From positions 1 through 64,000 of the forward strand of contig CANMWZ010000022.1 in NCBI GenBank assembly GCA_947501605.1: DNA of 64,000 nucleotides, read 5' to 3'. This document shows positions 44,032-57,024 of this stretch, piece after piece; the stretch's first letter is position 1, and the number at the start of each line of letters is the position of its first letter. The notes beneath the pieces are model-generated. The model worked only from the letters and a program-made list of their open reading frames with translations, searched no databases and was not told the origin of the DNA. This DNA is from Planctomycetota bacterium (GTDB lineage: Bacteria > Planctomycetota > UBA1135 > UBA2386). Made by a program: the position numbers and the translations under genes.

Positions 44032-46725
44032 TCAGTCCTTGCGACGCTCGAGGTGGAAGTCGTCGAACGCGACGTCAGCGGTGTTGCCGGCTCGTCCAGA
44101 CACGAGCAGGACGGTCTCCAGTTCTTTGCTGTCGGCCGCCCGCAGCATCGTCAGGTCCTTCTGCTGCAAGACCGCGCCGTCGATCAGCATCAGCAGGCGG
44201 AACAGGTTCTCGCCGCGGTCTTGCACGCGGAGTTCGAAGGTGTGTTCGCCGGCGACCGCGGCCTCGCCGCCTGGCCCCGATTGCATCGGGTCGGCCTTGC
44301 CTTCACGGACCATCCAGAACGGCTTGCCATCGCGCAGGCCGATCTGCGCCTGAAAGTCCGGCGCACTGCCGCTACCGCGCGACTGGATGCGCACGCCAGC
44401 AAAGGTGTCCTGTACCTGGTGGCCCGGCAACAGCGTCATGCGCGCCGACACCGCCAAGAACTTGCCGCCCTTCTGCACGGCACCGGCGCGCACCGCGGAG
44501 ACCTCGGTCGCGCGTGAGAACCGGCCGGAGAACAGCAGTCGATTCTGGTCGACGACGGCGCCGAGGCCACCATCGCGCTCGAGCAGCCAGACGTTGCCCA
44601 CCTCACTGCGCTCGAAGCGATCATCGAGCTGCTCCTTCTGGGCATGGTCTTCGATGCGCTGCAAGGTCTCGGTTGCCCACTGCCGCATCGGGTGCTCACG
44701 CGGCAGATCGCTTTGCATGCGCTCGAGCTGCGGGCGGGCTTCTTCGCCGTGGTCCATGGCGTAGTCGACGATTGCGAGCGCGGCCTGGGCAAACAGTCGA
44801 CCGGGGTCGTCGGTGGCGGCGTCGCGAGCCGCCGAGAAGGCGTCTTGGGCGCCGCGCAGATCGGCGGTCGCGAAATGCGCCAAGCCTTGGCGTTCCCGCA
44901 AGGTCACGCTCTGCACCGGTGACAACGTGACGGCTCGATCGGCGTAGCGCACCGCGGCCAGCGCGCTCTGCGCCTGCTCGCTGGCATCGCCGTCGCGCAG
45001 CATCTGCATCCGCTGCTCACTCACCTCAGCCAGCGCTGGTACAAAGTCGTCGCGCAGGCGAAGGACGGCGTTGAGCGCCTCGATCGAGTTGCCGGTTTGC
45101 CCAAGCCCGGCCAACGCCCGCGCCTTGAGATAGTGCGCGTAGACGTAGAGCGGATCGGCCTCGAGGGCGCGATCGGCCTGCGTGGCGGCGGCCTCGAACT
45201 GACCGAGGCGGATGTAGAGCAACGACAGGCCAGCGAGGGCTTGGTGCCGCAGCAACGGCGCGTCGACGACGACCGACTCGAAGGAGGACTTGGCGTCTTG
45301 CCATTCGCCCAGCCGGACCTGACAGGCCGCGACACCAAGCTGGGCCGCTGGCCCGAAGCCCGCAGCCGCGGCCGCGCGGAAGCCGTCTTTGGCCGCCGGG
45401 AGCAGGCCCGAGGCATAGTCGATCGCCGCCCGCAACTGGGCCAAGAGCGCCGCCTGCGGGGTCCCAGCAGGGTGGCTGCCAAACTTGGATAGCGCCTCGC
45501 GCGCCCCGTCCATGTCGCCCATGCCGAGCAGGCCGCCGATGGCGACTTGGATCACGCGCAAGCGCTCGAGCTGATCGCTGACCGAGCCCAGCGTTGCCAT
45601 CGCGCGCTGCGCCATCGCATGGGCTTGCTGCGGCTCGGCCCGTTGGCGCAGGAACTGCGAGAGAGCGGCGTGCGGGCGTGCGTCGGTGGGCGCGATCGCG
45701 ATGGCCTGCTGCAGGCTGTCGATAGCCGCCGAGTAGAGGCCGAGGCGACCCTGAAGGATCCCGAGCCCCTCGAACCGGAACGCGCCAGCGGGACCGTTCG
45801 ACGGCAACGACTCGTAGAGCGCAAGCTCACCGGCCAGGTCGCCCTTGTAGCGCAGCACGCGGGCCTTGGCGCGAACGGCGGTCAGACCCGCGTCGGTCCG
45901 CGCCAGAACTTCGGCCTGCTCGAGCGCCACTTCGTAGACCCACGCTTCGTTGCGCGCCCAGAGCAACAGCTCGTCGATGAGCTTCTCGCGATCGAGCGCA
46001 TGAGCGGCGTCAGCTGGCACCGCCCGAACCGCACGAGCCACGCGGTTCTTCAGCGTGTCGGCCAGCCGGATCTTGGTGACCCGAATGCGCTCGTCGTTGC
46101 CGAACGTCGCTTCGGGAGGCTTGACCTTCTCGTCGGTGATGGAGAACTCGAGCACGTTTACGACAACGCCCTCGAGACCGCCTTCGTCGCGCTGTTCAAG
46201 ATCGAACAGGTCCTGCCCAGGTACGCGCAGGATGCCGAAGTGCTCTTCACTCTGGCCGCTCAACCACACTTGGTCGTACTGGCGACGGTAGCGCTCCTTC
46301 TTCTGGTCGCGCGTCTCCACGACCGAGGTCGGAGCCGCCTCTTCAACAGCAACGGCAGCGGCAACCGCTTCGAGCGTCACGCCGGTCGTCACCGCGCCAG
46401 GGATCAACAACAAGTCGGCGCGGACAAAATCAGGGCCCGGTTCGAGTGGCAAAGCGACCACCTGCAGCGCCTCTTGAACCGGGAACGGCAACGGCCGCGG
46501 CGGCAACGGCTGGGTCTCGCTCGGTTCGCGAAACCACTGGCGCTGCGAAGCGGCATTGGCTGGCGTCGTCAGCAGCGGGGCAGTTGGTGGCGTCGCCGCT
46601 ACATAGGCCTTGACGGTGGTCGCGATACTCGGCGCTCGCCACTCCTCGTCCTTGCAGCGGGTGAGGACCAGAGCTCCGAGCGCAAGGCTCGAGAGCGCGA
46701 GCACTTGTTCCTTTCGCAATGCCAT
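44032..46725 (-). CDS. Membrane-anchored tetratricopeptide-repeat protein
   Basis: N-terminal hydrophobic segment, many Ala-rich TPR-like helical pairs, beta-rich C-terminus. Confidence 0.75.
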   Translation of the reverse strand: MALRKEQVLALSSLALGALVLTRCKDEEWRAPSIATTVKAYVAATPPTAPLLTTPANAASQRQWFREPSETQPLPPRPLPFPVQEALQVVALPLEPGPDFVRADLLLIPGAVTTGVTLEAVAAAVAVEEAAPTSVVETRDQKKERYRRQYDQVWLSGQSEEHFGILRVPGQDLFDLEQRDEGGLEGVVVNVLEFSITDEKVKPPEATFGNDERIRVTKIRLADTLKNRVARAVRAVPADAAHALDREKLIDELLLWARNEAWVYEVALEQAEVLARTDAGLTAVRAKARVLRYKGDLAGELALYESLPSNGPAGAFRFEGLGILQGRLGLYSAAIDSLQQAIAIAPTDARPHAALSQFLRQRAEPQQAHAMAQRAMATLGSVSDQLERLRVIQVAIGGLLGMGDMDGAREALSKFGSHPAGTPQAALLAQLRAAIDYASGLLPAAKDGFRAAAAAGFGPAAQLGVAACQVRLGEWQDAKSSFESVVVDAPLLRHQALAGLSLLYIRLGQFEAAATQADRALEADPLYVYAHYLKARALAGLGQTGNSIEALNAVLRLRDDFVPALAEVSEQRMQMLRDGDASEQAQSALAAVRYADRAVTLSPVQSVTLRERQGLAHFATADLRGAQDAFSAARDAATDDPGRLFAQAALAIVDYAMDHGEEARPQLERMQSDLPREHPMRQWATETLQRIEDHAQKEQLDDRFERSEVGNVWLLERDGGLGAVVDQNRLLFSGRFSRATEVSAVRAGAVQKGGKFLAVSARMTLLPGHQVQDTFAGVRIQSRGSGSAPDFQAQIGLRDGKPFWMVREGKADPMQSGPGGEAAVAGEHTFELRVQDRGENLFRLLMLIDGAVLQQKDLTMLRAADSKELETVLLVSGRAGNTADVAFDDFHLERRKD

Positions 46726-46726
46726 T

Positions 46727-47560
46727 TCAGTTCGACTCCTTGGTCGCTTCCTTGAACGCCACGCCGACCAGCGAACCGCTGGTCGTCACGGGATCGGCAC
46801 GCCGGCCGGTGTGCGCCATCTTCAAGCCGGCTTCGAGCGTCAACGTGCGTCCGGGCTGCCGCAGCGACTCGAGAAACGCAAGGGCGGTAGCTTCGTCGCT
46901 CTTGAACTCGAACAGCACGCGCTCCTGGTCGAAGAACTCGCGCACGTCGACCTGGTTCTGCTTGCCGGAACGAAGGGTCGGGCGTCGCGCGGTGCGGCGG
47001 GCCTCGACGCCAATGCGCATGCCGACGAGGCCCTGCGCTTGCGGGTCTGCCGTGCGCACGGCGTCATGCGCCGCGAACAGTCGCGTGCAGATCTGATCGA
47101 CCAACTCGATGCCAAACAACGCGGCGCGGATCTCGTCGAGCCCGTTCGGCGCCGGCGGCCAGGTCAGGTCGCGATTGGGATCCACCTGCACATCGCGCTC
47201 ACTCGCAGCTTTCAAGATCGCGAGCTTGCGCTCGCGCCCGATTTTGCCGAGGAACTCGTCGGCGCCGAAGCCCTTGCCCTCGAACGAGAACTCGGGGTTG
47301 CGGGTGTAGCCGATCTCCAGCGCCAGAACCTTGCGCGCCGCCGCCAGTCGATCCTGCTCTTCGATCGCAGCTGCGAGTGCCGCGCGGTCGTAGACCTCGA
47401 CAGACTGCGCTTGCTTCGCGACGCCGCGCGCGTCGCGCCGATTGGGCCCGGGGTCGTAAATCGCACCGACAATACTGCGGGCAATGAGGAACGCAGCGAG
47501 ACCGATGGCACAGCCGAGCAGCCAGCGCTTGTTCTCCTGCACGAAGGAACCGACATCCAT
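46727..47560 (-). CDS. PilO/GspM-like bitopic membrane protein
   Basis: N-terminal TM helix, coiled coil, ferredoxin-like C-terminus (ALAFLESL); follows pilMN. Confidence 0.55.
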   Translation of the reverse strand: MDVGSFVQENKRWLLGCAIGLAAFLIARSIVGAIYDPGPNRRDARGVAKQAQSVEVYDRAALAAAIEEQDRLAAARKVLALEIGYTRNPEFSFEGKGFGADEFLGKIGRERKLAILKAASERDVQVDPNRDLTWPPAPNGLDEIRAALFGIELVDQICTRLFAAHDAVRTADPQAQGLVGMRIGVEARRTARRPTLRSGKQNQVDVREFFDQERVLFEFKSDEATALAFLESLRQPGRTLTLEAGLKMAHTGRRADPVTTSGSLVGVAFKEATKESN

Positions 47561-49170
47561 CAGCTCTTCCCTCCGAACTCGATCGTGAACGTGAACTCGA
47601 CCGTGCTGTCACCACCCGCCGGCGTCGACAACTGCGGGACCGCCCCAGCCTCGAGCAACAGCGGATCCTTCTTCAGACGCTGCGAGAACTCGAGCAGCAC
47701 GTTGCTGATGTTGGCGCCATCGAGTTCCTTGCCGCGGCCCTTGACCTCTACCACCGGTCGCTTCTCCGCGTTGCCGGCGCCGCGCATCTCGACGGCGACT
47801 TTCGTGAGCCACAATTGTGGTGGCAAGTTGGCCGTCACTGCGCGCAGGACTCGCAGCGCGCCATGAAGCGGAACGGCTTGCTGCGCGAGGTGATCAACCA
47901 CCGCACGGCCTTGCAGGTTTTCTTCGACGATGGCTTGCGCCTGTTTGTCGACGTCCTGCTTTTGCGACCAGTCGCGAGTAACGAGATTGAGCGCCTTCGC
48001 CGCAGACTCCACTCCCGCCTTTCGGTCCTTGGCGTAGAGCACGAGCAGCACGATGGCAAAAGCGGCGGCGGCGATGTTGAACACCATCCGCTGCTGGAAT
48101 CGGCGGCGCTTCTCGACCGCGGCCGGCAGGATCTCGAGCGAGTACAGCGTCGCGTCGACGCTCGCCACCGCGAGCCCGAGCGCGATGACCGCCTCACTGC
48201 GCATCTGCTGCAACTGCTCAGCATCGCCGGCCGGCAGCGCCGACAAGTCGAGGTTCTCGAACGGATCGAACAGATCGACCGGGCACCGCAGCGCCTCGCG
48301 CAGCATGCCACGGAGGCCACGGAGGCGGGCGCTCCCGCCGCTGAGCAGCACTTTGTCGAGCTTGAGGTCGGCGATCTTCGTTTGCACTTTGCAGAAGGCC
48401 ACAGAACTCTGGATCGCAGCGACGATCGCGTTGGCAGCGCCACCCGCCGCCATCGTGACCTTCTCGGCTTGGCCCGAAGCGAAGTTGCCGCGGCTCTGAG
48501 GGTCGAGATCGAGCAGGTCGCGCTTCAGCGTCTCGGCCTTGCGCTCGGACACGTTGAATGCCGCCGCGATGGCATCGTCCAGCACCTTGCCGCCACCGCT
48601 CAGATTGCGAGCGAACAACAAGTCCTGCCCCCTGACCAGAGCCAGATCGATGGTCTCGTGGCCGATGTTGGCCAAGCAAACCACCACATCCTCCTCAACC
48701 GGGCCGCACTTCAGGTAGGCGTTGTAGAGCGCGATGCAGTTCGGCGTGAACGCGGCAACACTACCCGAAGCCTCGCTCACGATGCCCGCCATGCGTTCGA
48801 GCGACTCATCGCGGGCGAGCGCCAGCAGCACCGTATCGACGCCGGCCTCGGCATCGACGCTGGGCAGCAGGTTGTAGTCCGCGGACAGCGAGCCGCCCGA
48901 CTGCTGGGCAAGATCCTGGATCTCCAGATCCATGAGATTCTTCAACTGCCAATCCGGCGTCGGCGGCACCTGGCTGTAGCGGAGATTCATGTCGCGGCCC
49001 GACAAGCCACAGACTGCGTTCTTGGGCGGCTGCCCACCCGGCCGCAGGTTTGCCGCACCCTCGTCGACCGGCACGGCTGCGAAGCCAATGACCTTGATGC
49101 CGTGCTTGGTGGCCTTGACAGAAATGGACTTGATGCTGTGTCCACCGATATCGATCGCAACGCCTGCCAT
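47560..49170 (-). CDS. pilM: PilM (actin-like) fused to a PilN-like TM/periplasmic domain
   Basis: IDIGGHSIK, NIGHETIDL, VLLSGGSARLRGL, ALGLA; then EILP, TM helix, coiled coil, LPPQLWLTKV. Confidence 0.85.
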   Translation of the reverse strand: MAGVAIDIGGHSIKSISVKATKHGIKVIGFAAVPVDEGAANLRPGGQPPKNAVCGLSGRDMNLRYSQVPPTPDWQLKNLMDLEIQDLAQQSGGSLSADYNLLPSVDAEAGVDTVLLALARDESLERMAGIVSEASGSVAAFTPNCIALYNAYLKCGPVEEDVVVCLANIGHETIDLALVRGQDLLFARNLSGGGKVLDDAIAAAFNVSERKAETLKRDLLDLDPQSRGNFASGQAEKVTMAAGGAANAIVAAIQSSVAFCKVQTKIADLKLDKVLLSGGSARLRGLRGMLREALRCPVDLFDPFENLDLSALPAGDAEQLQQMRSEAVIALGLAVASVDATLYSLEILPAAVEKRRRFQQRMVFNIAAAAFAIVLLVLYAKDRKAGVESAAKALNLVTRDWSQKQDVDKQAQAIVEENLQGRAVVDHLAQQAVPLHGALRVLRAVTANLPPQLWLTKVAVEMRGAGNAEKRPVVEVKGRGKELDGANISNVLLEFSQRLKKDPLLLEAGAVPQLSTPAGGDSTVEFTFTIEFGGKS

Positions 49171-49172
49171 GG

Positions 49173-51125
49173 TTACTCCTGCTTGCCGAAGCGCTGCGTC
49201 ACGTAGTCGCGCACAAGGTTCGCCAACCCTGCTTGCTGGGCCGCGTCAAACGCGGCGGCCATCGCCTGAAGGCGCTTCTGCTGGTCGCTCTGACGCTGGG
49301 TGTCGAGTTGCAAAAGACGCGCTTCGGCGCGAGCGCGCAGCGCCGCAATGCCCTGTGGATCCTCGACGTTGTTGGCGCCGTAGGTTTCGAGCAACCGATC
49401 GACCCCTGCGACCACACGCTGGAAGCCGCCCCGAGTGTCAAAGAACTCTGCGTCTTCGAGTTCGATCGAGAGTTGCCGCAGACGCTCTTGTGCCGCCTGC
49501 TGCCACTCGCCGCGTCGGGCCACGACGGTCGCAGCCGTCTCGGCATCGTGAGGCACCGTGCGCAACAATTCGCGCAGCATGTCGAGGGCTCCTCCCGGGG
49601 CGCCGGAGTCGGCGCTGGCCTCTGCCGTGCGCAGCAGTTCGCGCGCCTGTTGCCGCTCCTGGCGGAACCCGAACTGCAGCCGGAAGGCAGCGGCCGGAAT
49701 CGTGATGCGATACACACCATTGCCGAGCTTGCCGGTCAGCGCGAGCGCCGCCGGGAGCTCGATGAGACAGCGGGTGGAACGATCGCCGAGCAGCACTCGG
49801 CGGCACGGCCCAAGCGAGTCGGCTTCTGCGCCGCCAAAACCAGCGCCGCCATCGACCAGGAGGCCGCCCGCGTTTTCCGCCGGAAAGTCGAGTTCGAGCG
49901 AGCTACAGCCAGTTGCCTCGAACCGCGCCCCGAACTCGTCCGCAGTAACGCCAATCGCAGCGCCGATGTCAGACAGCGCCAGTTGGTCGGCGGCTGCCAG
50001 CCCACGCAACTCCGCCGCCACATCCGCGGGCCGCAGGGACAGCAGCATGACCGGCGCCTCGGTGTCCATCGATCGCACCGCGAGGCTCTGACCGGCGCCG
50101 ACGACGGTTGCACTCTCGCCAATCTTTTGCTCGATGCCGACTGCTGCTCCTGCCTCCAGCAAGGCGACGTCATCACACTGGACTCGACTCGATTCCGAGG
50201 GCAGCACAGCGACGATCTCGATGCGGCATCGGTCGGCGCCGGGCGGGACCGCGGCGATGACTTCGCGACGCTGCCACTCGGGGCTAGCCGCGAGGTCGGT
50301 ACCGGTGCGGAAGCGGAACGGGGCCTGCTCGTTGCTGCTCCAGAACGTGAGCCGCACGGCCGCGCGAGCGTCCGCCGATGTCCGCAGGTGCGCAGCCGCG
50401 GTCAGCGACCGGCCGCCCAGCACCTTGATCTCGCTCGAAGTCGCGGCAACCGCGAAGTCGACGCCGTCGCCTCCACGCCCGGCCTCGAAGCCGCGGCGGC
50501 CGGTGTGACCCGTGCCACCGCCAGTGAACCCGGCACCGGCGACGCGTAGGTCCCAGCCAGCCTCTTGTTCGCAGCCCGCGGCTTCGCCATCGAGTCGATT
50601 GCTGGGAACCTGCAGCACCGCGCGCGGCCCGGCTGCGGTCTGGCTGCCATCGTCACCGCTGCCAGAACCCTGCAAGGTGAACCACAGGTAGCCACCGGCC
50701 GCCACCAGGAGCACGAGCACCAGCACCATGGTCGAGGCCGATCGACCGCGACCTTGCCCCTTCGCCGCCTCAAGGCGCGCGGCGTCGATGCGGCCGAGTG
50801 CGATCTCTTGCGTGCTGAGGTCCTTGGGTTCGCCCTCCGCTGAAAAGCGCAACCGAATGCGGCCGATCGTGAAGGTGTCACCGCGGCCGAGGACGACTTC
50901 CGTGACTTTGCGACCGTCCATCATCGTGCCGTTCGTCGACCCCAGGTCGCGAAGCACGTAGCGGCCGCCTTCGAACGCCACCTCGGCGTGCACGCCGGAG
51001 GCTTTCTCATCGGCGACGACGAGGTCGTTGCCAGGTTTGCGGCCGATGCGGAGCGTGCCCTCCGCGAGCGACAGGACTTCGCCAGCTCGATCCCCGTCGA
51101 GGATCTCGAGTACGAATTGGGCCAT
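49173..51125 (-). CDS. FHA-domain bitopic membrane protein
   Basis: FHA motifs IGR, SGVH, STNGT; TM helix; CBM-like beta domain; helical C-terminus. Confidence 0.85.
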   Translation of the reverse strand: MAQFVLEILDGDRAGEVLSLAEGTLRIGRKPGNDLVVADEKASGVHAEVAFEGGRYVLRDLGSTNGTMMDGRKVTEVVLGRGDTFTIGRIRLRFSAEGEPKDLSTQEIALGRIDAARLEAAKGQGRGRSASTMVLVLVLLVAAGGYLWFTLQGSGSGDDGSQTAAGPRAVLQVPSNRLDGEAAGCEQEAGWDLRVAGAGFTGGGTGHTGRRGFEAGRGGDGVDFAVAATSSEIKVLGGRSLTAAAHLRTSADARAAVRLTFWSSNEQAPFRFRTGTDLAASPEWQRREVIAAVPPGADRCRIEIVAVLPSESSRVQCDDVALLEAGAAVGIEQKIGESATVVGAGQSLAVRSMDTEAPVMLLSLRPADVAAELRGLAAADQLALSDIGAAIGVTADEFGARFEATGCSSLELDFPAENAGGLLVDGGAGFGGAEADSLGPCRRVLLGDRSTRCLIELPAALALTGKLGNGVYRITIPAAAFRLQFGFRQERQQARELLRTAEASADSGAPGGALDMLRELLRTVPHDAETAATVVARRGEWQQAAQERLRQLSIELEDAEFFDTRGGFQRVVAGVDRLLETYGANNVEDPQGIAALRARAEARLLQLDTQRQSDQQKRLQAMAAAFDAAQQAGLANLVRDYVTQRFGKQE

Positions 51126-53739: not shown

Positions 53740-53815
53740 GCCTCCATAGCTCAGTTGGTAGAGCAGCGGATTCTTAATCCGCGGGTCCTAGGTTCGATCC
53801 CTAGTGGAGGTACCA
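53740..53815 (+). tRNA. tRNA-Lys(CTT)
   Basis: GCCTCCATAGCTCAG...GCGGA-TTCTTAA-TCCGC...GGTTCGATCC...GGAGGTACCA, 76 nt. Confidence 0.97.
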
Positions 53816-53949: not shown

Positions 53950-55632
53950 TCAGAGATCCGCGCGCTCCGCGGTCTCGCTGACGGACGAGTGCTCGGCCAG
54001 GACCGGCTCCTTGGGGATGTGCAGCACGAACTCGGTGCCGGCACCCTCGGTGGATTCGAACGTCACCGAGCCGCCGTGGCCGGCAGTGATCTCCTTGACG
54101 ATGTGCAGTCCAAGGCCGTTGCCGCTGATGCCGCCGGTGTTGCTGCCGCGCTCAAAGCGGCGGAACAGACGGGCGCGATCGCTCTCGGGGATGCCGATGC
54201 CGTTGTCGCGAACGTGGAGCCCCCAGCTGTCGCCCTCGTCCTCGGCAAACACGCGAATGGTGGGTCGCCGATCCGGGCTCGCGTATTGCAGCGCGTTGCC
54301 GAGCAGATTGGTCAGGGCCTTGGTCAACGCCCACTGGTCGGCGGTGATCGTCGGCATCGGCTCGACCCGCAGCAGCACGTCGCGGTCCTCGATCTCGAAA
54401 CGCATGTGATTCGCGATCTGACCGAGCAGCAGCGTCAGATCCACAGGCTGGAAGTTGAGTTGGACACCGTCGTGGTCGAGCCGCGAACTGTCGAGCAGAT
54501 CGCGGATCAGCAACTCCATCTGATTGACTGCCAAGAGGCCGTTCTGAATCGCCTGCTGCTGCTGGCCCGAGAGTTCCCCGAGATAGCCCTTCTTGAGCGT
54601 CGACAGCATCAAGCGCACAGCGCTCAGCGGTCGGTTGAGGTCGTGCACCGTGTTCTGTGCGACCTCCACCATCTCTCGGACTTTGCGTTCGAGCAGGTTC
54701 TTGTGCTGGTCGAGATCGCCGAAGCGGCGCGCAAGTTCGAGCGAGGAGCGGACGCTGCTGGCGAGGAGAGCACCGTTCTCGCCGTCCGTGTCGTCGGACG
54801 CCATCGACGGCGCTTCGGGAGCCGGAGCGAGCTCGGCGTCAAGTTCGGCATCGGACAGCCGCTCATCGCCGCGCACCGGGCCCTCGACCTCACCGCTGCC
54901 GTCGGACTCGTCGACGCGAAAGCTCGTCTGCGGCAACTCTTCGATTGCCACCTCAGCACGCTCGCGACGCACCTCGTCACAGATCTCCCACAACTTCGTT
55001 CGCGCGCCTTCGGCAACGTCCTCGGCCGAGGCGCTGCCGCGGCCAAGCCCGTACTGCCGGACCTTCGACTCGATGAGGAGCCCCGCCGCATGCACAAAGG
55101 TCTCGAACACCCCATAGCCCTCGGTCGCGACCGACGGGAACGCATCGATGTCGGGCCGAAACCGAAAGTGCCGATCCAGCTCGGGCTCGCTCAGGATGTC
55201 CGGCAAGTCGCGTTTGTTGTATTGGATGATGATCGGGATGTCGGTGGCCGAGGCCGCGCGCAAGTTCTCGATCATGCTCTGCATGGACTCGAGGTTCTCC
55301 TGCAGTCGGCTGCGCTGACTGTCCACAACGAACACCACCGCATCGGCGCCGTTCAACACGTACTTGCGCATCTGCCGGTACTTGGGTTGCCCAGGCACGG
55401 TGAAGCCTTGGATCCGGATCTTGAACCCACCGACGCTGCCGAGGTTGATCGGCAGGAAGTCGAACAACAGGGTGCTGTCTTCCTCGGTGTTGATCGAGAC
55501 GAGCTGCACCTCGTTGCGCGGGCAGAGAATCCCGTGCACGCGCTGCAGGCTCGTGGTCTTGCCGCCGACGCCTACCCCGTAGTAGACGAGCTTGGCGTTG
55601 ATTGTTCGTTCGGCGACGTTGATGAAGCCCAT
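53950..55632 (-). CDS. MglA-type small GTPase fused to a histidine kinase (HisKA + HATPase_c)
   Basis: FIN...INAKLVYYG...GKTT, TLLFDFLP, TVPGQ, NKRD, SVA..G.GVFET; then H-box HDLNRPL, N-box NLLGNA, DNGIGI, GNGLGL. Confidence 0.9.
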   Translation of the reverse strand: MGFINVAERTINAKLVYYGVGVGGKTTSLQRVHGILCPRNEVQLVSINTEEDSTLLFDFLPINLGSVGGFKIRIQGFTVPGQPKYRQMRKYVLNGADAVVFVVDSQRSRLQENLESMQSMIENLRAASATDIPIIIQYNKRDLPDILSEPELDRHFRFRPDIDAFPSVATEGYGVFETFVHAAGLLIESKVRQYGLGRGSASAEDVAEGARTKLWEICDEVRRERAEVAIEELPQTSFRVDESDGSGEVEGPVRGDERLSDAELDAELAPAPEAPSMASDDTDGENGALLASSVRSSLELARRFGDLDQHKNLLERKVREMVEVAQNTVHDLNRPLSAVRLMLSTLKKGYLGELSGQQQQAIQNGLLAVNQMELLIRDLLDSSRLDHDGVQLNFQPVDLTLLLGQIANHMRFEIEDRDVLLRVEPMPTITADQWALTKALTNLLGNALQYASPDRRPTIRVFAEDEGDSWGLHVRDNGIGIPESDRARLFRRFERGSNTGGISGNGLGLHIVKEITAGHGGSVTFESTEGAGTEFVLHIPKEPVLAEHSSVSETAERADL

Positions 55633-55686: not shown

Positions 55687-57024
55687 TCAGCCGCCGAGCG
55701 GAGGCTTCGTGTTCGGGATCAACCCGCCAAGCCACACCCCGGCGTCCAACAGGCTGAGCAGTGCCGCTGTCAGGCCCTTCCCATCGACCTCTGCGAGCGC
55801 GTGCACAGCAGCGTCGGCGATCCCGAAGTGGCCCAACAGACAAGCGGCCCGAGCGCGCGGTAGCAGACTCGCGGGCACCCGCGAAAGGGCTTGGCTCAGG
55901 GTGGTTGCGAACGGCGGCACTGCCAGCTCGGCGCGAACGACCGCAAGCGCGGCCGCGATCTCGCCAGCGGTTGGCGGCGTCGTCTCGTACGAGGCCAACA
56001 GGCTTTCGAGCTCGCGGCGTGGCACCTCTGGACCGCCCTCGGCAGGCGCGCGGCGGAACAACATCACCAGCGGGTCGCCCAGCAGAAAGTCTGCTTGCAC
56101 GAACGGGGCTCGCGCGAGCGACTCATTGCCGCGCCACGACTGGAACCGCGTCCGCGCCCGCAGTCGCAGGAGTTCGATCGCTGCAGCGGCAGACAGCGAA
56201 TCGTCGCTGGGCACGGGGAGCCGTAGCGCCGCAGCCACATAGGCAGCATCGATGCGGGGGTGCGGTTCCAGCGCGATCGGCAACGTGCCGTCGTGCCGCC
56301 AGTTCGCCGCTTCGATCGTTGCCGGTGTCGGACCAGCGGCAACGTTGGCAAGCACGAGCCAGAGGCGCGCCCCAACACTAGCCTCGCCGACCGTACAAAC
56401 GCGCAAGGGTGCCGAGAGCGGCAGCGCCGACGCCGTCACGAACGCGGCGGTTCCGCAGCGCTGAAGTGACGACGCATCGCCAAGGACGCCCGTCGCACGC
56501 GAGGTCGCGGCGAACACCGCACGACGAGCGAGCCCGTGCAGCACTTCACCAGGGTAGAGCCAGTCCGCGTCGTCGGCCGCGAGCGCCGCCAGCGCCAAGG
56601 TGCGGGCCAAGGTGTCGGTCGAGCAGTCGCCGAACGGCCGCAACAGCGCCTCGAGCCAGCTCGCGGCGGTCGTCGGCGAGGCGGACCTCAGCACCACTGA
56701 GAAGACCGTGAAGCCATCGCCGAGTTCGCGCTGCGTCGTCGCACCCGCTGGCAGCACGGCGTCGGCATTCACCGCACGCTGCATGGCGAGCGCATGCTCG
56801 AGCGCCCGCTGCGCGCCACCGTCCACGAGCGGACGCCATGGCCATACGACCGCAATGGCAACCGCATCCGTCTGCGGAACTTCAATCGCCCTGAGAGCAT
56901 GGCCGTTCGGCGTGCGTTGCCACGCTCCCGCAGTCGTCACCGCGGGTTCCTGGGCCGAGAGTGCGGCCCCGAGCAGGAAGCTCATCTGCAGACTCGACCA
57001 CATCGGCTTCGTCACTCTTGCCAT
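55687..57024 (-). CDS. Degenerate M16 peptidase-like exported protein
   Basis: Signal-like N-terminus, TPNG motif, RALEH in place of HxxEH; weak resemblance. Confidence 0.45.
   Translation of the reverse strand: MARVTKPMWSSLQMSFLLGAALSAQEPAVTTAGAWQRTPNGHALRAIEVPQTDAVAIAVVWPWRPLVDGGAQRALEHALAMQRAVNADAVLPAGATTQRELGDGFTVFSVVLRSASPTTAASWLEALLRPFGDCSTDTLARTLALAALAADDADWLYPGEVLHGLARRAVFAATSRATGVLGDASSLQRCGTAAFVTASALPLSAPLRVCTVGEASVGARLWLVLANVAAGPTPATIEAANWRHDGTLPIALEPHPRIDAAYVAAALRLPVPSDDSLSAAAAIELLRLRARTRFQSWRGNESLARAPFVQADFLLGDPLVMLFRRAPAEGGPEVPRRELESLLASYETTPPTAGEIAAALAVVRAELAVPPFATTLSQALSRVPASLLPRARAACLLGHFGIADAAVHALAEVDGKGLTAALLSLLDAGVWLGGLIPNTKPPLGG

Follow-up and report, generated by a model that had tools for sequence, protein, structure and literature searches.

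Can a Ras-like G domain serve as the built-in sensor of a bacterial histidine kinase? The question is raised by a gene in the first 64,000 nucleotides of contig CANMWZ010000022.1 (assembly GCA_947501605.1, a Planctomycetota bacterium; this whole stretch is "the window" below), whose product joins an MglA-type GTPase domain to a complete histidine kinase (Table 1). Known crosstalk between small G proteins and two-component systems runs through separate proteins, as in MglA/RomR/Frz signaling and in conservons. A sequence-only reading of the window had proposed that a Ras-like switch is here the input domain of a cytoplasmic kinase, linking nucleotide state or polar location to a phosphorelay. 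The analysis described below establishes the fusion as real. Its best explanation as a whole, an MglA-gated HisKA kinase feeding a partner-switching cascade, is one that we hold tentatively, at somewhat less than even confidence.

The G domain and the kinase are encoded by one conserved gene

Long open frames are expected in high-GC DNA, which might suggest a chance read-through; an assembly chimera or a decaying fusion would be equally trivial explanations. The data leave practically no room for any of them. A homologue search (681 matches among 8000 candidates scored) showed that the fusion recurs: 119 of the 120 best homologues carry Arf, HisKA and HATPase_c, and the remaining one is a partial sequence. 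Both domains lie in one frame at 62 of 68 genome loci of the fused type, five others reach contig ends, and the only split locus (L098), which might be cited in favor of a read-through, contains an N-gap and frameshifts. At class level, G domain and kinase boxes share one closed frame at 22 of 22 loci. A contig from an RNA library bridges the junction (54108-55216) with one mismatch; the contigs from this library cover parts of the fused gene, the sample may itself be the source of the window DNA, and such contigs do not prove transcription, nor can they show strand, level or operon. All seven motifs are found in 133 of 136 aligned homologues, the other three being partial. Finally, dN/dS ratios in six pairs reveal purifying selection on every domain, and the values for the G domain (0.08-0.13, against 0.24-0.42 for the ATPase domain) argue that this domain is not decaying. 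The outcome that would have undone the sequence-only reading, with homologues always split into two genes or a junction created by assembly, did not materialize.

Domain layout of the fused protein

Residues 1-188 align with Myxococcus xanthus MglA (structure 5ymx, E 2.6e-45) and residues 314-543 with HK853 (E 2.6e-27). Pfam matches above cut-off were Arf (66-156, E 1.1e-10), HisKA (323-387, E 7.8e-12; PF00512 score 45.5 bits, cut-off 26.9) and HATPase_c (432-542, E 4.6e-27). A fold search with a model of residues 1-330, in which only residues 5-200 were compared, again returned 5ymx (Z 23.4, rmsd 4.0, 196 aligned residues; second-best match Z 17.4). Both fold and sequence thus place the domain within the MglA fold. 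A feature-based Atlas search with residues 1-330 gave no usable match. No transmembrane segment was detected, the peak 19-residue hydropathy being 1.14 here and 1.61 at most in the family, compared with 1.86-2.55 in seven tail-anchored canonical MglAs. On all these points (MglA pattern over residues 1 to about 190, intact kinase boxes, acidic linker followed by a coiled coil, soluble protein) the earlier description proved accurate.

Table 1. Coordinates of the fused gene, its parts and its nearest neighbors in the window.
Feature	Coordinates	Strand	Basis or remark
Whole fused gene	53950..55632	(-)	Single ORF, ATG to TGA, 560 aa
MglA-type (Group 1-like) G domain, residues 1-190	55063..55632	(-)	5ymx match, conservation, fold
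G1/P-loop GVGVGGKTT, residues 19-27	55552..55578	(-)	Alignment
Ser53 at the MglA intrinsic arginine finger site, Thr54 retained	55474..55476	(-)	Alignment to 5ymx
G3 TVPGQ (78-82), catalytic Gln82	55387..55401	(-)	Alignment, 136/136
G4 NKRD (139-142), guanine-specificity motif	55207..55218	(-)	N, K, D 136/136
Family-specific G-domain extension, residues 191-240	54913..55062	(-)	Extra helix 203-224 and predicted strand 235-240
Acidic low-confidence linker, residues 241-284	54781..54912	(-)	Variable length; short conserved motif near 258-264
Signaling helix/coiled coil, residues 285-322	54667..54780	(-)	Continuous into DHp helix 1
HisKA/DHp, residues 323-387	54472..54666	(-)	Pfam and alignment
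Phospho-accepting His330	54643-54645	(-)	DHp
H+4 = Arg334 instead of Thr/Asn	54631-54633	(-)	Alignment
HATPase_c, residues 432-542, N/G1/F/G2 boxes	54007..54339	(-)	Pfam and alignment
C-terminal tail with P-x4-H-S motif	53953..54006	(-)	Conserved in 133/136
Upstream co-oriented gene, M16-peptidase-like fold (lead only)	55687..57024	(-)	Without Pfam match; Atlas features and fold
tRNA-Lys, convergent with fused gene 3' end, context only	53740..53815	(+)	

The G domain has the GTP-binding motifs and lacks the intrinsic arginine finger

Residue conservation was assessed in 136 distinct sequences (the 120 best homologues plus 20 loci, less 4 duplicates). The mean top-residue frequency is highest in the G domain (0.89), followed by DHp (0.82), the ATPase domain (0.74) and the linker (0.39). 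Within G1, G21, K25, T26 and T27 are invariant (135/135), as are T54, Q82 and the N-K-x-D residues; the GxxxxGKT, TVPGQ and NKxD signatures of MglA Group 1 are thus present throughout (135-136 sequences). The G domain very probably binds GTP, judging from these motifs.

Position 53 tells a different story. Among the 135 sequences with a residue there, 123 have Ser, 8 Ala, 4 Gln and none Arg. An arginine finger next to the G2 threonine is conserved in all members of MglA Group 1 (PMC4316618), and Arg53 is kept in 18 of 18 canonical MglAs; it also occurs in 101 fused relatives, a set selected for Arg and hence at 100% by construction. As reported in a study of the Thermus thermophilus protein, the R53A change lowers both intrinsic and GAP-stimulated hydrolysis, and the MglB-binding surface of MglA consists of L55, F57 and F59 (PMC3199381). 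GTP hydrolysis by the fused domain is probably slow. The term "Ras-like switch", applied to it by the sequence-only reading, therefore calls for a qualification, the intrinsic arginine finger being absent. Lys84 was considered as a substitute finger and rejected, being common in Arg53-bearing relatives. The three MglB-surface residues are invariant in the fused family. Between them, Leu takes the place of F56, a residue that does not vary in canonical or Arg-bearing fused domains, and switch II is changed as well (V83P, T88M). With 560 residues, the protein also falls outside the size range of Group 1 (single domain, 150-240 aa).

A variable linker leads to a signaling helix of fixed length and a probable kinase-only core

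In a full-length model (pLDDT 76, pTM 0.44) a single helix runs from residue 285 to 348, into DHp, and residues 230-284 are of low confidence or disordered. A model from a deeper alignment has residues 1-240 as one folded unit with an additional helix and strand (pLDDT 85). The position of the signaling helix relative to the G domain is not shown by the full-length model or by that of residues 1-330 (pTM 0.72). The linker is net negative in 132 of 132 sequences and carries a short motif near residues 258-264 in 111 of 136; the distance from G4 to the helix motif ranges from 156 to 260 aa, a variation of about 100 residues. The helix itself begins with a motif characteristic of the family, LL-x2-[TA]V-x-[ST]N-[LI]E-x-A (here LLASSVRSSLELA), placed at a constant 34 aa from the phosphorylatable His in 132 of 132 sequences. 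Because linker length varies, a nucleotide-driven change could hardly travel down a rigid helix as in PAS/HAMP kinases.

The kinase core is orthodox in its catalytic residues. The H330-D331 pair, a phospho-His with an acidic neighbor, is present in 135 of 135 sequences; N446 and the glycines of the G1 box (D476-x-G-x-G) are invariant, and the F and G2 boxes are in place. In all likelihood this HisKA core is active as a kinase. The H+4 residue is Arg in 125 and Lys in 10 of 135 sequences, and never Thr or Asn. In HisKA proteins, according to PMC3510030, the acid at H+1 is needed for kinase activity and Thr/Asn at H+4 for phosphatase activity, so that the residue expected of a bifunctional enzyme is missing here. 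From the missing Arg53 and the Arg/Lys at H+4, neither of which figures in the sequence-only reading, we infer a slow-hydrolyzing GTP binder mounted on a kinase-only core. Across 277 proteins, Arg53 coincides with Thr at H+4 in 98 and a non-Arg residue with Arg/Lys at H+4 in 171, with 8 exceptions. Co-evolution was not accepted as the cause of this pairing, which follows clades.

Two approaches to contacts between the G module and the kinase were uninformative. A predicted complex of the G module (residues 1-228 with GTP and Mg) with a kinase dimer (residues 254-560, two copies) scored 0.25 against a mark of 0.32 and was counted neither way; the top covarying pairs between G module and signaling helix (209 sequences, effective number 38) look like tree noise.

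The subfamily is a derived branch of a wider MglA-kinase family

A profile search over 1.84 billion representatives gave further proteins with an N-terminal MglA-like domain. Of 48 scanned outside the subfamily, 39 have HATPase_c, and among these a GAF domain was detected in 19 and a PAS domain in 2. Most wider-family members retain Arg53, and the named ones come from Planctomycetota and Acidobacteriota; fused-length frames are numerous among 251 Acidobacteriota genomes, a tally that includes the unpublished genomes G548 and G671, on neither of which any claim rests. The helix motif behind the linker is common to the phyla and kinase types of this wider family, and the GAF or PAS domain of the relatives is located between the same helix and the kinase. 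Since that domain is gone from the subfamily, the G module would be the only sensor remaining.

In a quick tree of 80 G domains, the subfamily forms a clade (support 100) separate from the canonical mglA of the genome, of which the fused domain is thus not a recent copy. The clade is nested in a planctomycete group made of fused forms and truncated derivatives (support 95). In other planctomycete families the orthologue lies near dnaA (17/20 regions), gyrB, a class-V aminotransferase gene and bsh-like genes, and is either whole or reduced to a G module of 218-229 aa; the latter, with Arg53, was found alone at the same locus in 11 genomes checked. In the source genome those flanking genes abut and the fused gene is relocated. 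The kinase core of the subfamily clusters with HDL-type kinases, among them an unfused kinase with a PocR domain; a topology uniting it with the GAF-type kinases in one clade was rejected (AU p 0.006). A first run of this test (p 3.7e-6) was confounded by a close unfused relative, P0198, and the value retained is from a rerun with P0198 inside; the group was named after tree inspection and the outgroups are top matches of the family's own profile, which limits how the figure can be read. The kinase core was probably swapped in the subfamily lineage. A likely history, reconstructed from the sequences, combines GAF loss, Arg53 loss, kinase swap and relocation in no established order.

Several forms within the wider family deserve mention in their own right. 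The proximity of dnaA, dnaN and gyrB in L144-L162 (20 regions; dnaA in 17/20) may matter for dosage or be plain ancestral synteny. The stand-alone 218-229-aa proteins (L152-L154, L158-L162, L141) retain Arg53 along with the extension helix but lack a kinase and have no mglB in their vicinity; they make up what we regard as an undescribed orphan MglA group. A Holophagaceae-type MglA-PAS-degenerate kinase-receiver protein of ~790 aa, mostly without a canonical H-box, is found at L199, L201, L204, L207, L210 and P0250. In f24 (L156:6754-7830, L157:1-717) the gene directly behind a fusion that lacks both GAF and the Arg encodes a pseudo-receiver attached to a degenerate GGDEF domain, conceivably a link to c-di-GMP. 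Genome G393 has a second fused paralogue (L163:7994-10835) with Lys at position 53 and a HEINNP kinase, its end overlapped by a canonical receiver gene. In one acidobacterial clade (L200, L202, L203, L206) a TPR-DUF4388 gene comes after the fusion, its domain type being shared with canonical mgl loci.

Distribution of the fusion and the canonical mgl locus

Among 151 genomes of the class, fused-type matches were obtained in the source genome, in 18 of the 19 other members of family f1 and in 4 of 4 members of f5; the same query gave none in f2 (85 genomes), f3 (32), f4 (4), f6, f7 and f8. Named homologue records are Planctomycetota metagenome-assembled genomes or unassigned bacteria, and the sequencing runs containing the window DNA come from lake water and freshwater sediment.

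The source genome also has a canonical mglA, on contig C7, with Arg53, a hydrophobic tail and a roadblock gene on either side. The locus (C7:27700-34348; L215) comprises a DUF4388-TPR-beta-propeller gene, a TPR gene, a roadblock gene, mglA and mglB; a Pro/Ala-rich linker and a C-terminal hydrophobic helix make this MglA likely membrane-tethered, and the tail recurs in 6 f2 MglAs checked. Within the locus, mglB occupies C7:33830-34348 and the other roadblock gene C7:32044-32493. An mglB gene lies near 9 of 12 canonical mglA loci and beside none of the fused loci in three sets (0/68, 0/20, 0/20), so that the mglB coupling typical of Group 1 is absent. The implied link to the polarity of type IV pili therefore finds no support in the gene neighborhood. 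The absence of MglB/roadblock and response regulator genes noted by the sequence-only reading extends to the whole contig, none of the 43 receiver-domain matches of the source genome being located on it.

A receiver and partner-switching proteins as candidate output

Clues to a cognate regulator came from relatives. In 3 of 20 acidobacterial regions (L196, L197, L212) the fused gene adjoins a single-domain receiver, and the best source-genome match of all three receivers (47-51% identity) is the product of an orphan gene, C24:27285-27659, the last of a row encoding an RsbW-like protein, SpoIIE and the receiver, and no kinase. In one acidobacterial clade, a locus (L243) combines a divergent ECF sigma factor gene with an operon for GAF-SpoIIE, receiver, MglA-GAF-kinase and STAS (Pfam). 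Among 20 metagenome loci, of which L243-245 are near-copies, SpoIIE occurs in 9 and a receiver in 15. SpoIIE, RsbW-like and STAS parts are all present in the source genome, unlinked to the fused gene; in relatives they share an operon with it.

The occurrence of the C24-type receiver (threshold E 1e-40 or better) was scored in planctomycete genomes that had been selected on the condition of their fused gene ahead of the receiver search. It is present in 15 of 16 genomes with a kinase-keeping orthologue, always directly behind SpoIIE, and the 16th has, where a contig breaks off, a fragment with 62% identity; none of 16 genomes with a kinase-less orthologue has it. Within the class it occurs in 18/19 f1, 4/4 f5 and 0/85 f2 genomes. 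Since the ridA control was found in 70 of 85 f2 genomes, that family is not simply too distant for detection.

A number of observations weigh against this assignment. A second receiver of the source genome (C7:21562-21933), preceded by STAS and a PAS kinase, had been intended as the negative control. It showed the same f1 plus f5 profile, which led to the use of ridA instead; the class profile consequently does not single out one partner. The C7 receiver is also limited to kinase-bearing lineages, although f40 and f59 lack it. Another kinase follows immediately after the C24-type receiver in f93 and f59. The C24-type receiver occurs without a fused gene having been found in seven genomes (G066, G113, G170, G201, G322, G367, G105) and is retained in G292, where the fused gene ends before the ATPase domain; conversely, G130 has the fusion and no clear receiver orthologue. 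Only 3 of 13 acidobacterial genomes have a receiver match at the same cut-off, and many acidobacterial fused genes show no H-box. The kinase-less lineages are related and may represent 2-3 independent losses; frame length was the sole basis for calling 2 of 16 genomes kinase-less and 3 of 16 kinase-bearing. At the 68 subfamily loci neither SpoIIE, RsbW nor STAS is found beside the gene, and receivers give one weak match. Finally, the GAF-type relatives that supplied the synteny probably have a different kinase core, so that the partner may have changed. In view of both sets of data, we consider it an even question whether the output runs through the C24 or C7 receiver.

Gene neighborhood

The fused gene has no conserved cognate regulator next to it, nor are pilus or mgl genes conserved at fused loci. 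Its neighbors include genes for an ABC ATPase, an M16-like protein, comEC, a thioredoxin-like protein, ridA and tRNAs. The upstream M16-like gene is syntenic in the family and fast-evolving (27% identity to its syntenic orthologue) and probably stands outside the mechanism. A promoter scan gave nothing above chance. A receiver-like small protein, without Pfam match or a normal phospho-Asp position, is encoded close to the fusion at 32 of 68 loci (L045:2771-3154 and 31 other f1 loci), often alongside an ECF-type sigma factor (16/68); the source-genome copy is on another contig (C58:926-1237). Immediately upstream of the fused gene, one lineage has a gene for a bacterial actin-like protein (MreB_Mbl, with a weak match to Salactin; L092:6839-7930). 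Finally, a row made up of FHA-domain, PilM-like, TPR and, judged by position only, PilO-like genes occupies 44032-51125 (-) in the window, 3 kb downstream past two tRNAs, and is syntenic with the fused gene in 3 of 69 loci only.

Discussion

The findings may be accommodated by the following model. The protein would be a soluble, homodimeric class I histidine kinase with the MglA-type G domain as its sole input module. As opposed to a fast-cycling MglA, this domain would bind GTP and hydrolyze it slowly, reporting GTP loading or partner binding at the switch I/beta-2 face. A linker of variable length cannot be a rigid lever; for this reason we propose that the G module acts on the kinase by docking back on the signaling helix or through partner-driven clustering, the nucleotide-driven change being carried by docking, clustering or localization. 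His330 would autophosphorylate, the enzyme being mainly a kinase and not a phosphatase, and phosphate would pass to a single-domain receiver encoded elsewhere, most likely at C24:27285-27659, alternatively at C7:21562-21933. The receiver, in turn, would feed a partner-switching cascade gating a sigma factor or another STAS-regulated target. That the G domain controls kinase activity is a proposition we favor by a narrow margin.

The G domain might instead be an address label, parking the kinase, when GTP-loaded, on MglB/MglC or another polar landmark while kinase activity remains indifferent to nucleotide. The invariance of the MglB-docking residues fits this idea, and so do the flexible linker, suitable as a tether, the roadblock genes beside canonical mglA and the 11 T2SSE/PilB-PilT-type ATPase matches in the genome; moreover, R53A MglA binds MglB like wild type (PMC3199381). 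Yet F56L, V83P and T88M point to a changed partner surface, mglB is missing from every fused locus, and a mere tether would not need a helix motif kept across phyla and kinase types. We therefore regard this alternative as rather unlikely, if still the most serious of those weighed here. Pushed further, to a protein coupling MglA-type pole switching of type IV pili to a motility phosphorelay, the polarity idea becomes very improbable: the canonical DUF4388-TPR/roadblock/mglA/mglB locus, the pilM gene in the window, the pilus-type ATPases and a receiver candidate ~10 kb from the mgl locus speak for it, whereas f2 has canonical mglA (81/85 genomes) and no fused-type match, fused loci are devoid of conserved pilus or mgl genes, and the fused domain is a separate old lineage.

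A working GTP/GDP switch toggling the kinase would require an arginine supplied in trans, by a GAP, or in cis, by K84, R89, R211 or R222. K84 and R89 are common in Arg53-bearing relatives and hence are not compensations, and no candidate GAP gene travels with the locus, making this possibility unlikely. Signal flow could also be reversed, the state of the kinase controlling a G domain that is the effector-binding output. This has been proposed for actinobacterial conservons, in which the kinase, CvnA, would act ahead of the GTPase, CvnD (PMC4316618, PMC13343842), and would fit the survival of the orthologous G module on its own, with Arg53, in 11 genomes. Against it, the HisKA kinase is orthodox, relatives adjoin receivers, the receiver vanishes where the kinase is lost, and the catalytic residue was lost in the GTPase, not in the kinase; we find it improbable. 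An MglA-gated kinase feeding a receiver thus remains our preferred reading.

This reading can be extended to the wider family. MglA-type G domains might be an unrecognized class of input modules for histidine kinases in Planctomycetota and Acidobacteriota, GTP-gating a receiver/SpoIIE/RsbW/STAS cascade, with the subfamily as a stripped, one-way form. Most members would be complete, self-hydrolyzing switches with a GAF or PAS domain; the stripped lineage, without GAF, arginine finger and phosphatase residue and with a swapped kinase core, would sense nothing but whether its own G domain is loaded with GTP or bound by a partner, e.g. the cell GTP/GDP or polarity state. We offer this generalization as a possibility, with less confidence than the model for the single protein.

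The architecture is strongly conserved, built from known parts and apparently unstudied. A literature search, with subscription journals mostly outside its coverage, yielded no study of an MglA-kinase fusion; within these bounds the sequence-only reading was right in knowing of no characterized example. By term count, the main text of a survey of kinase architectures (PMC4558063) has no mention of GTPase, Ras or Arf, and the accessible part of a 2026 preprint (10.64898/2026.10.19.760177) mentions MglA only in other contexts. A 2014 survey focused on proteins of 150-240 aa and counted 39 longer MglA-clade sequences; in three of its supplements, searched by term, HATPase_c occurred only in connection with conservons, and the fusion may be listed elsewhere there. 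New here are the absence of the residue needed for phosphatase activity, the connection with orthologues that carry GAF or lack the kinase, the probable exchange of the kinase core, and the lead to a receiver and partner switching. With kinase and G domain in one soluble 62-kDa protein, whether GTP state sets histidine-kinase activity becomes testable, for which the family supplies natural controls (with and without Arg53, with and without GAF, kinase-less), and the output can be tested as well, now that a receiver candidate has been named. The system would provide a first handle on signaling in abundant uncultured freshwater planctomycetes.

How does the protein compare with known systems? 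It shares with MglA Group 1 (M. xanthus, T. thermophilus; paralogue SofG) the fold, the N-terminal strand, G1, Thr54, TVPGQ, NKRD and L55/F57/F59, and differs by the lack of Arg53, by F56L, V83P and T88M, by the extra helix and strand and by the fusion to a kinase. With the HisKA sensor kinases HK853, CrdS and EnvZ it has in common the H-D DHp, the N/G1/F/G2 boxes and a signaling helix running into DHp; unlike theirs, its input is a tethered G domain instead of a PAS, GAF, HAMP or periplasmic sensor, its H+4 residue is Arg/Lys and no regulator is adjacent. Roco proteins (Roc-COR-kinase, LRRK2) likewise have a Ras-like G domain and a kinase within a single chain, and their kinase output is affected by GTP state, but that kinase is of the Ser/Thr type, they have a COR dimerization domain and their G domain belongs to another subfamily; the fused protein is no Roc-COR member, its Roc match being under cut-off (22 vs 27 bits) and a COR match absent from the Pfam results. 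In conservons (AGPS; CvnA kinase, CvnB roadblock, CvnC, CvnD GTPase) a histidine kinase and an MglA-family GTPase without arginine finger also act in one pathway. There, however, kinase and GTPase are separate proteins with the GTPase downstream (PMC13343842); the kinase is membrane-bound, the GTPase, thought to be the output, is of Group 2 (GTPGQ), MglB is encoded in the operon and there is no response regulator. The fusion, TVPGQ and the lack of a roadblock neighbor set our gene apart from the cvnA-B-C-D arrangement. The nearest model of the proposed output is found in Bacillus cereus, where a sensor kinase feeds a PP2C/anti-anti-sigma/anti-sigma partner switch (RsbK-RsbY-RsbV-RsbW-sigmaB; PMC4574943). 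RsbK, which has no G domain, is a hybrid kinase of the membrane, and RsbY unites REC and PP2C in one chain, whereas receiver and phosphatase are separate here and their link is one that we infer; SpoIIE, RsbW-like and STAS proteins would be the corresponding parts in the planctomycete.

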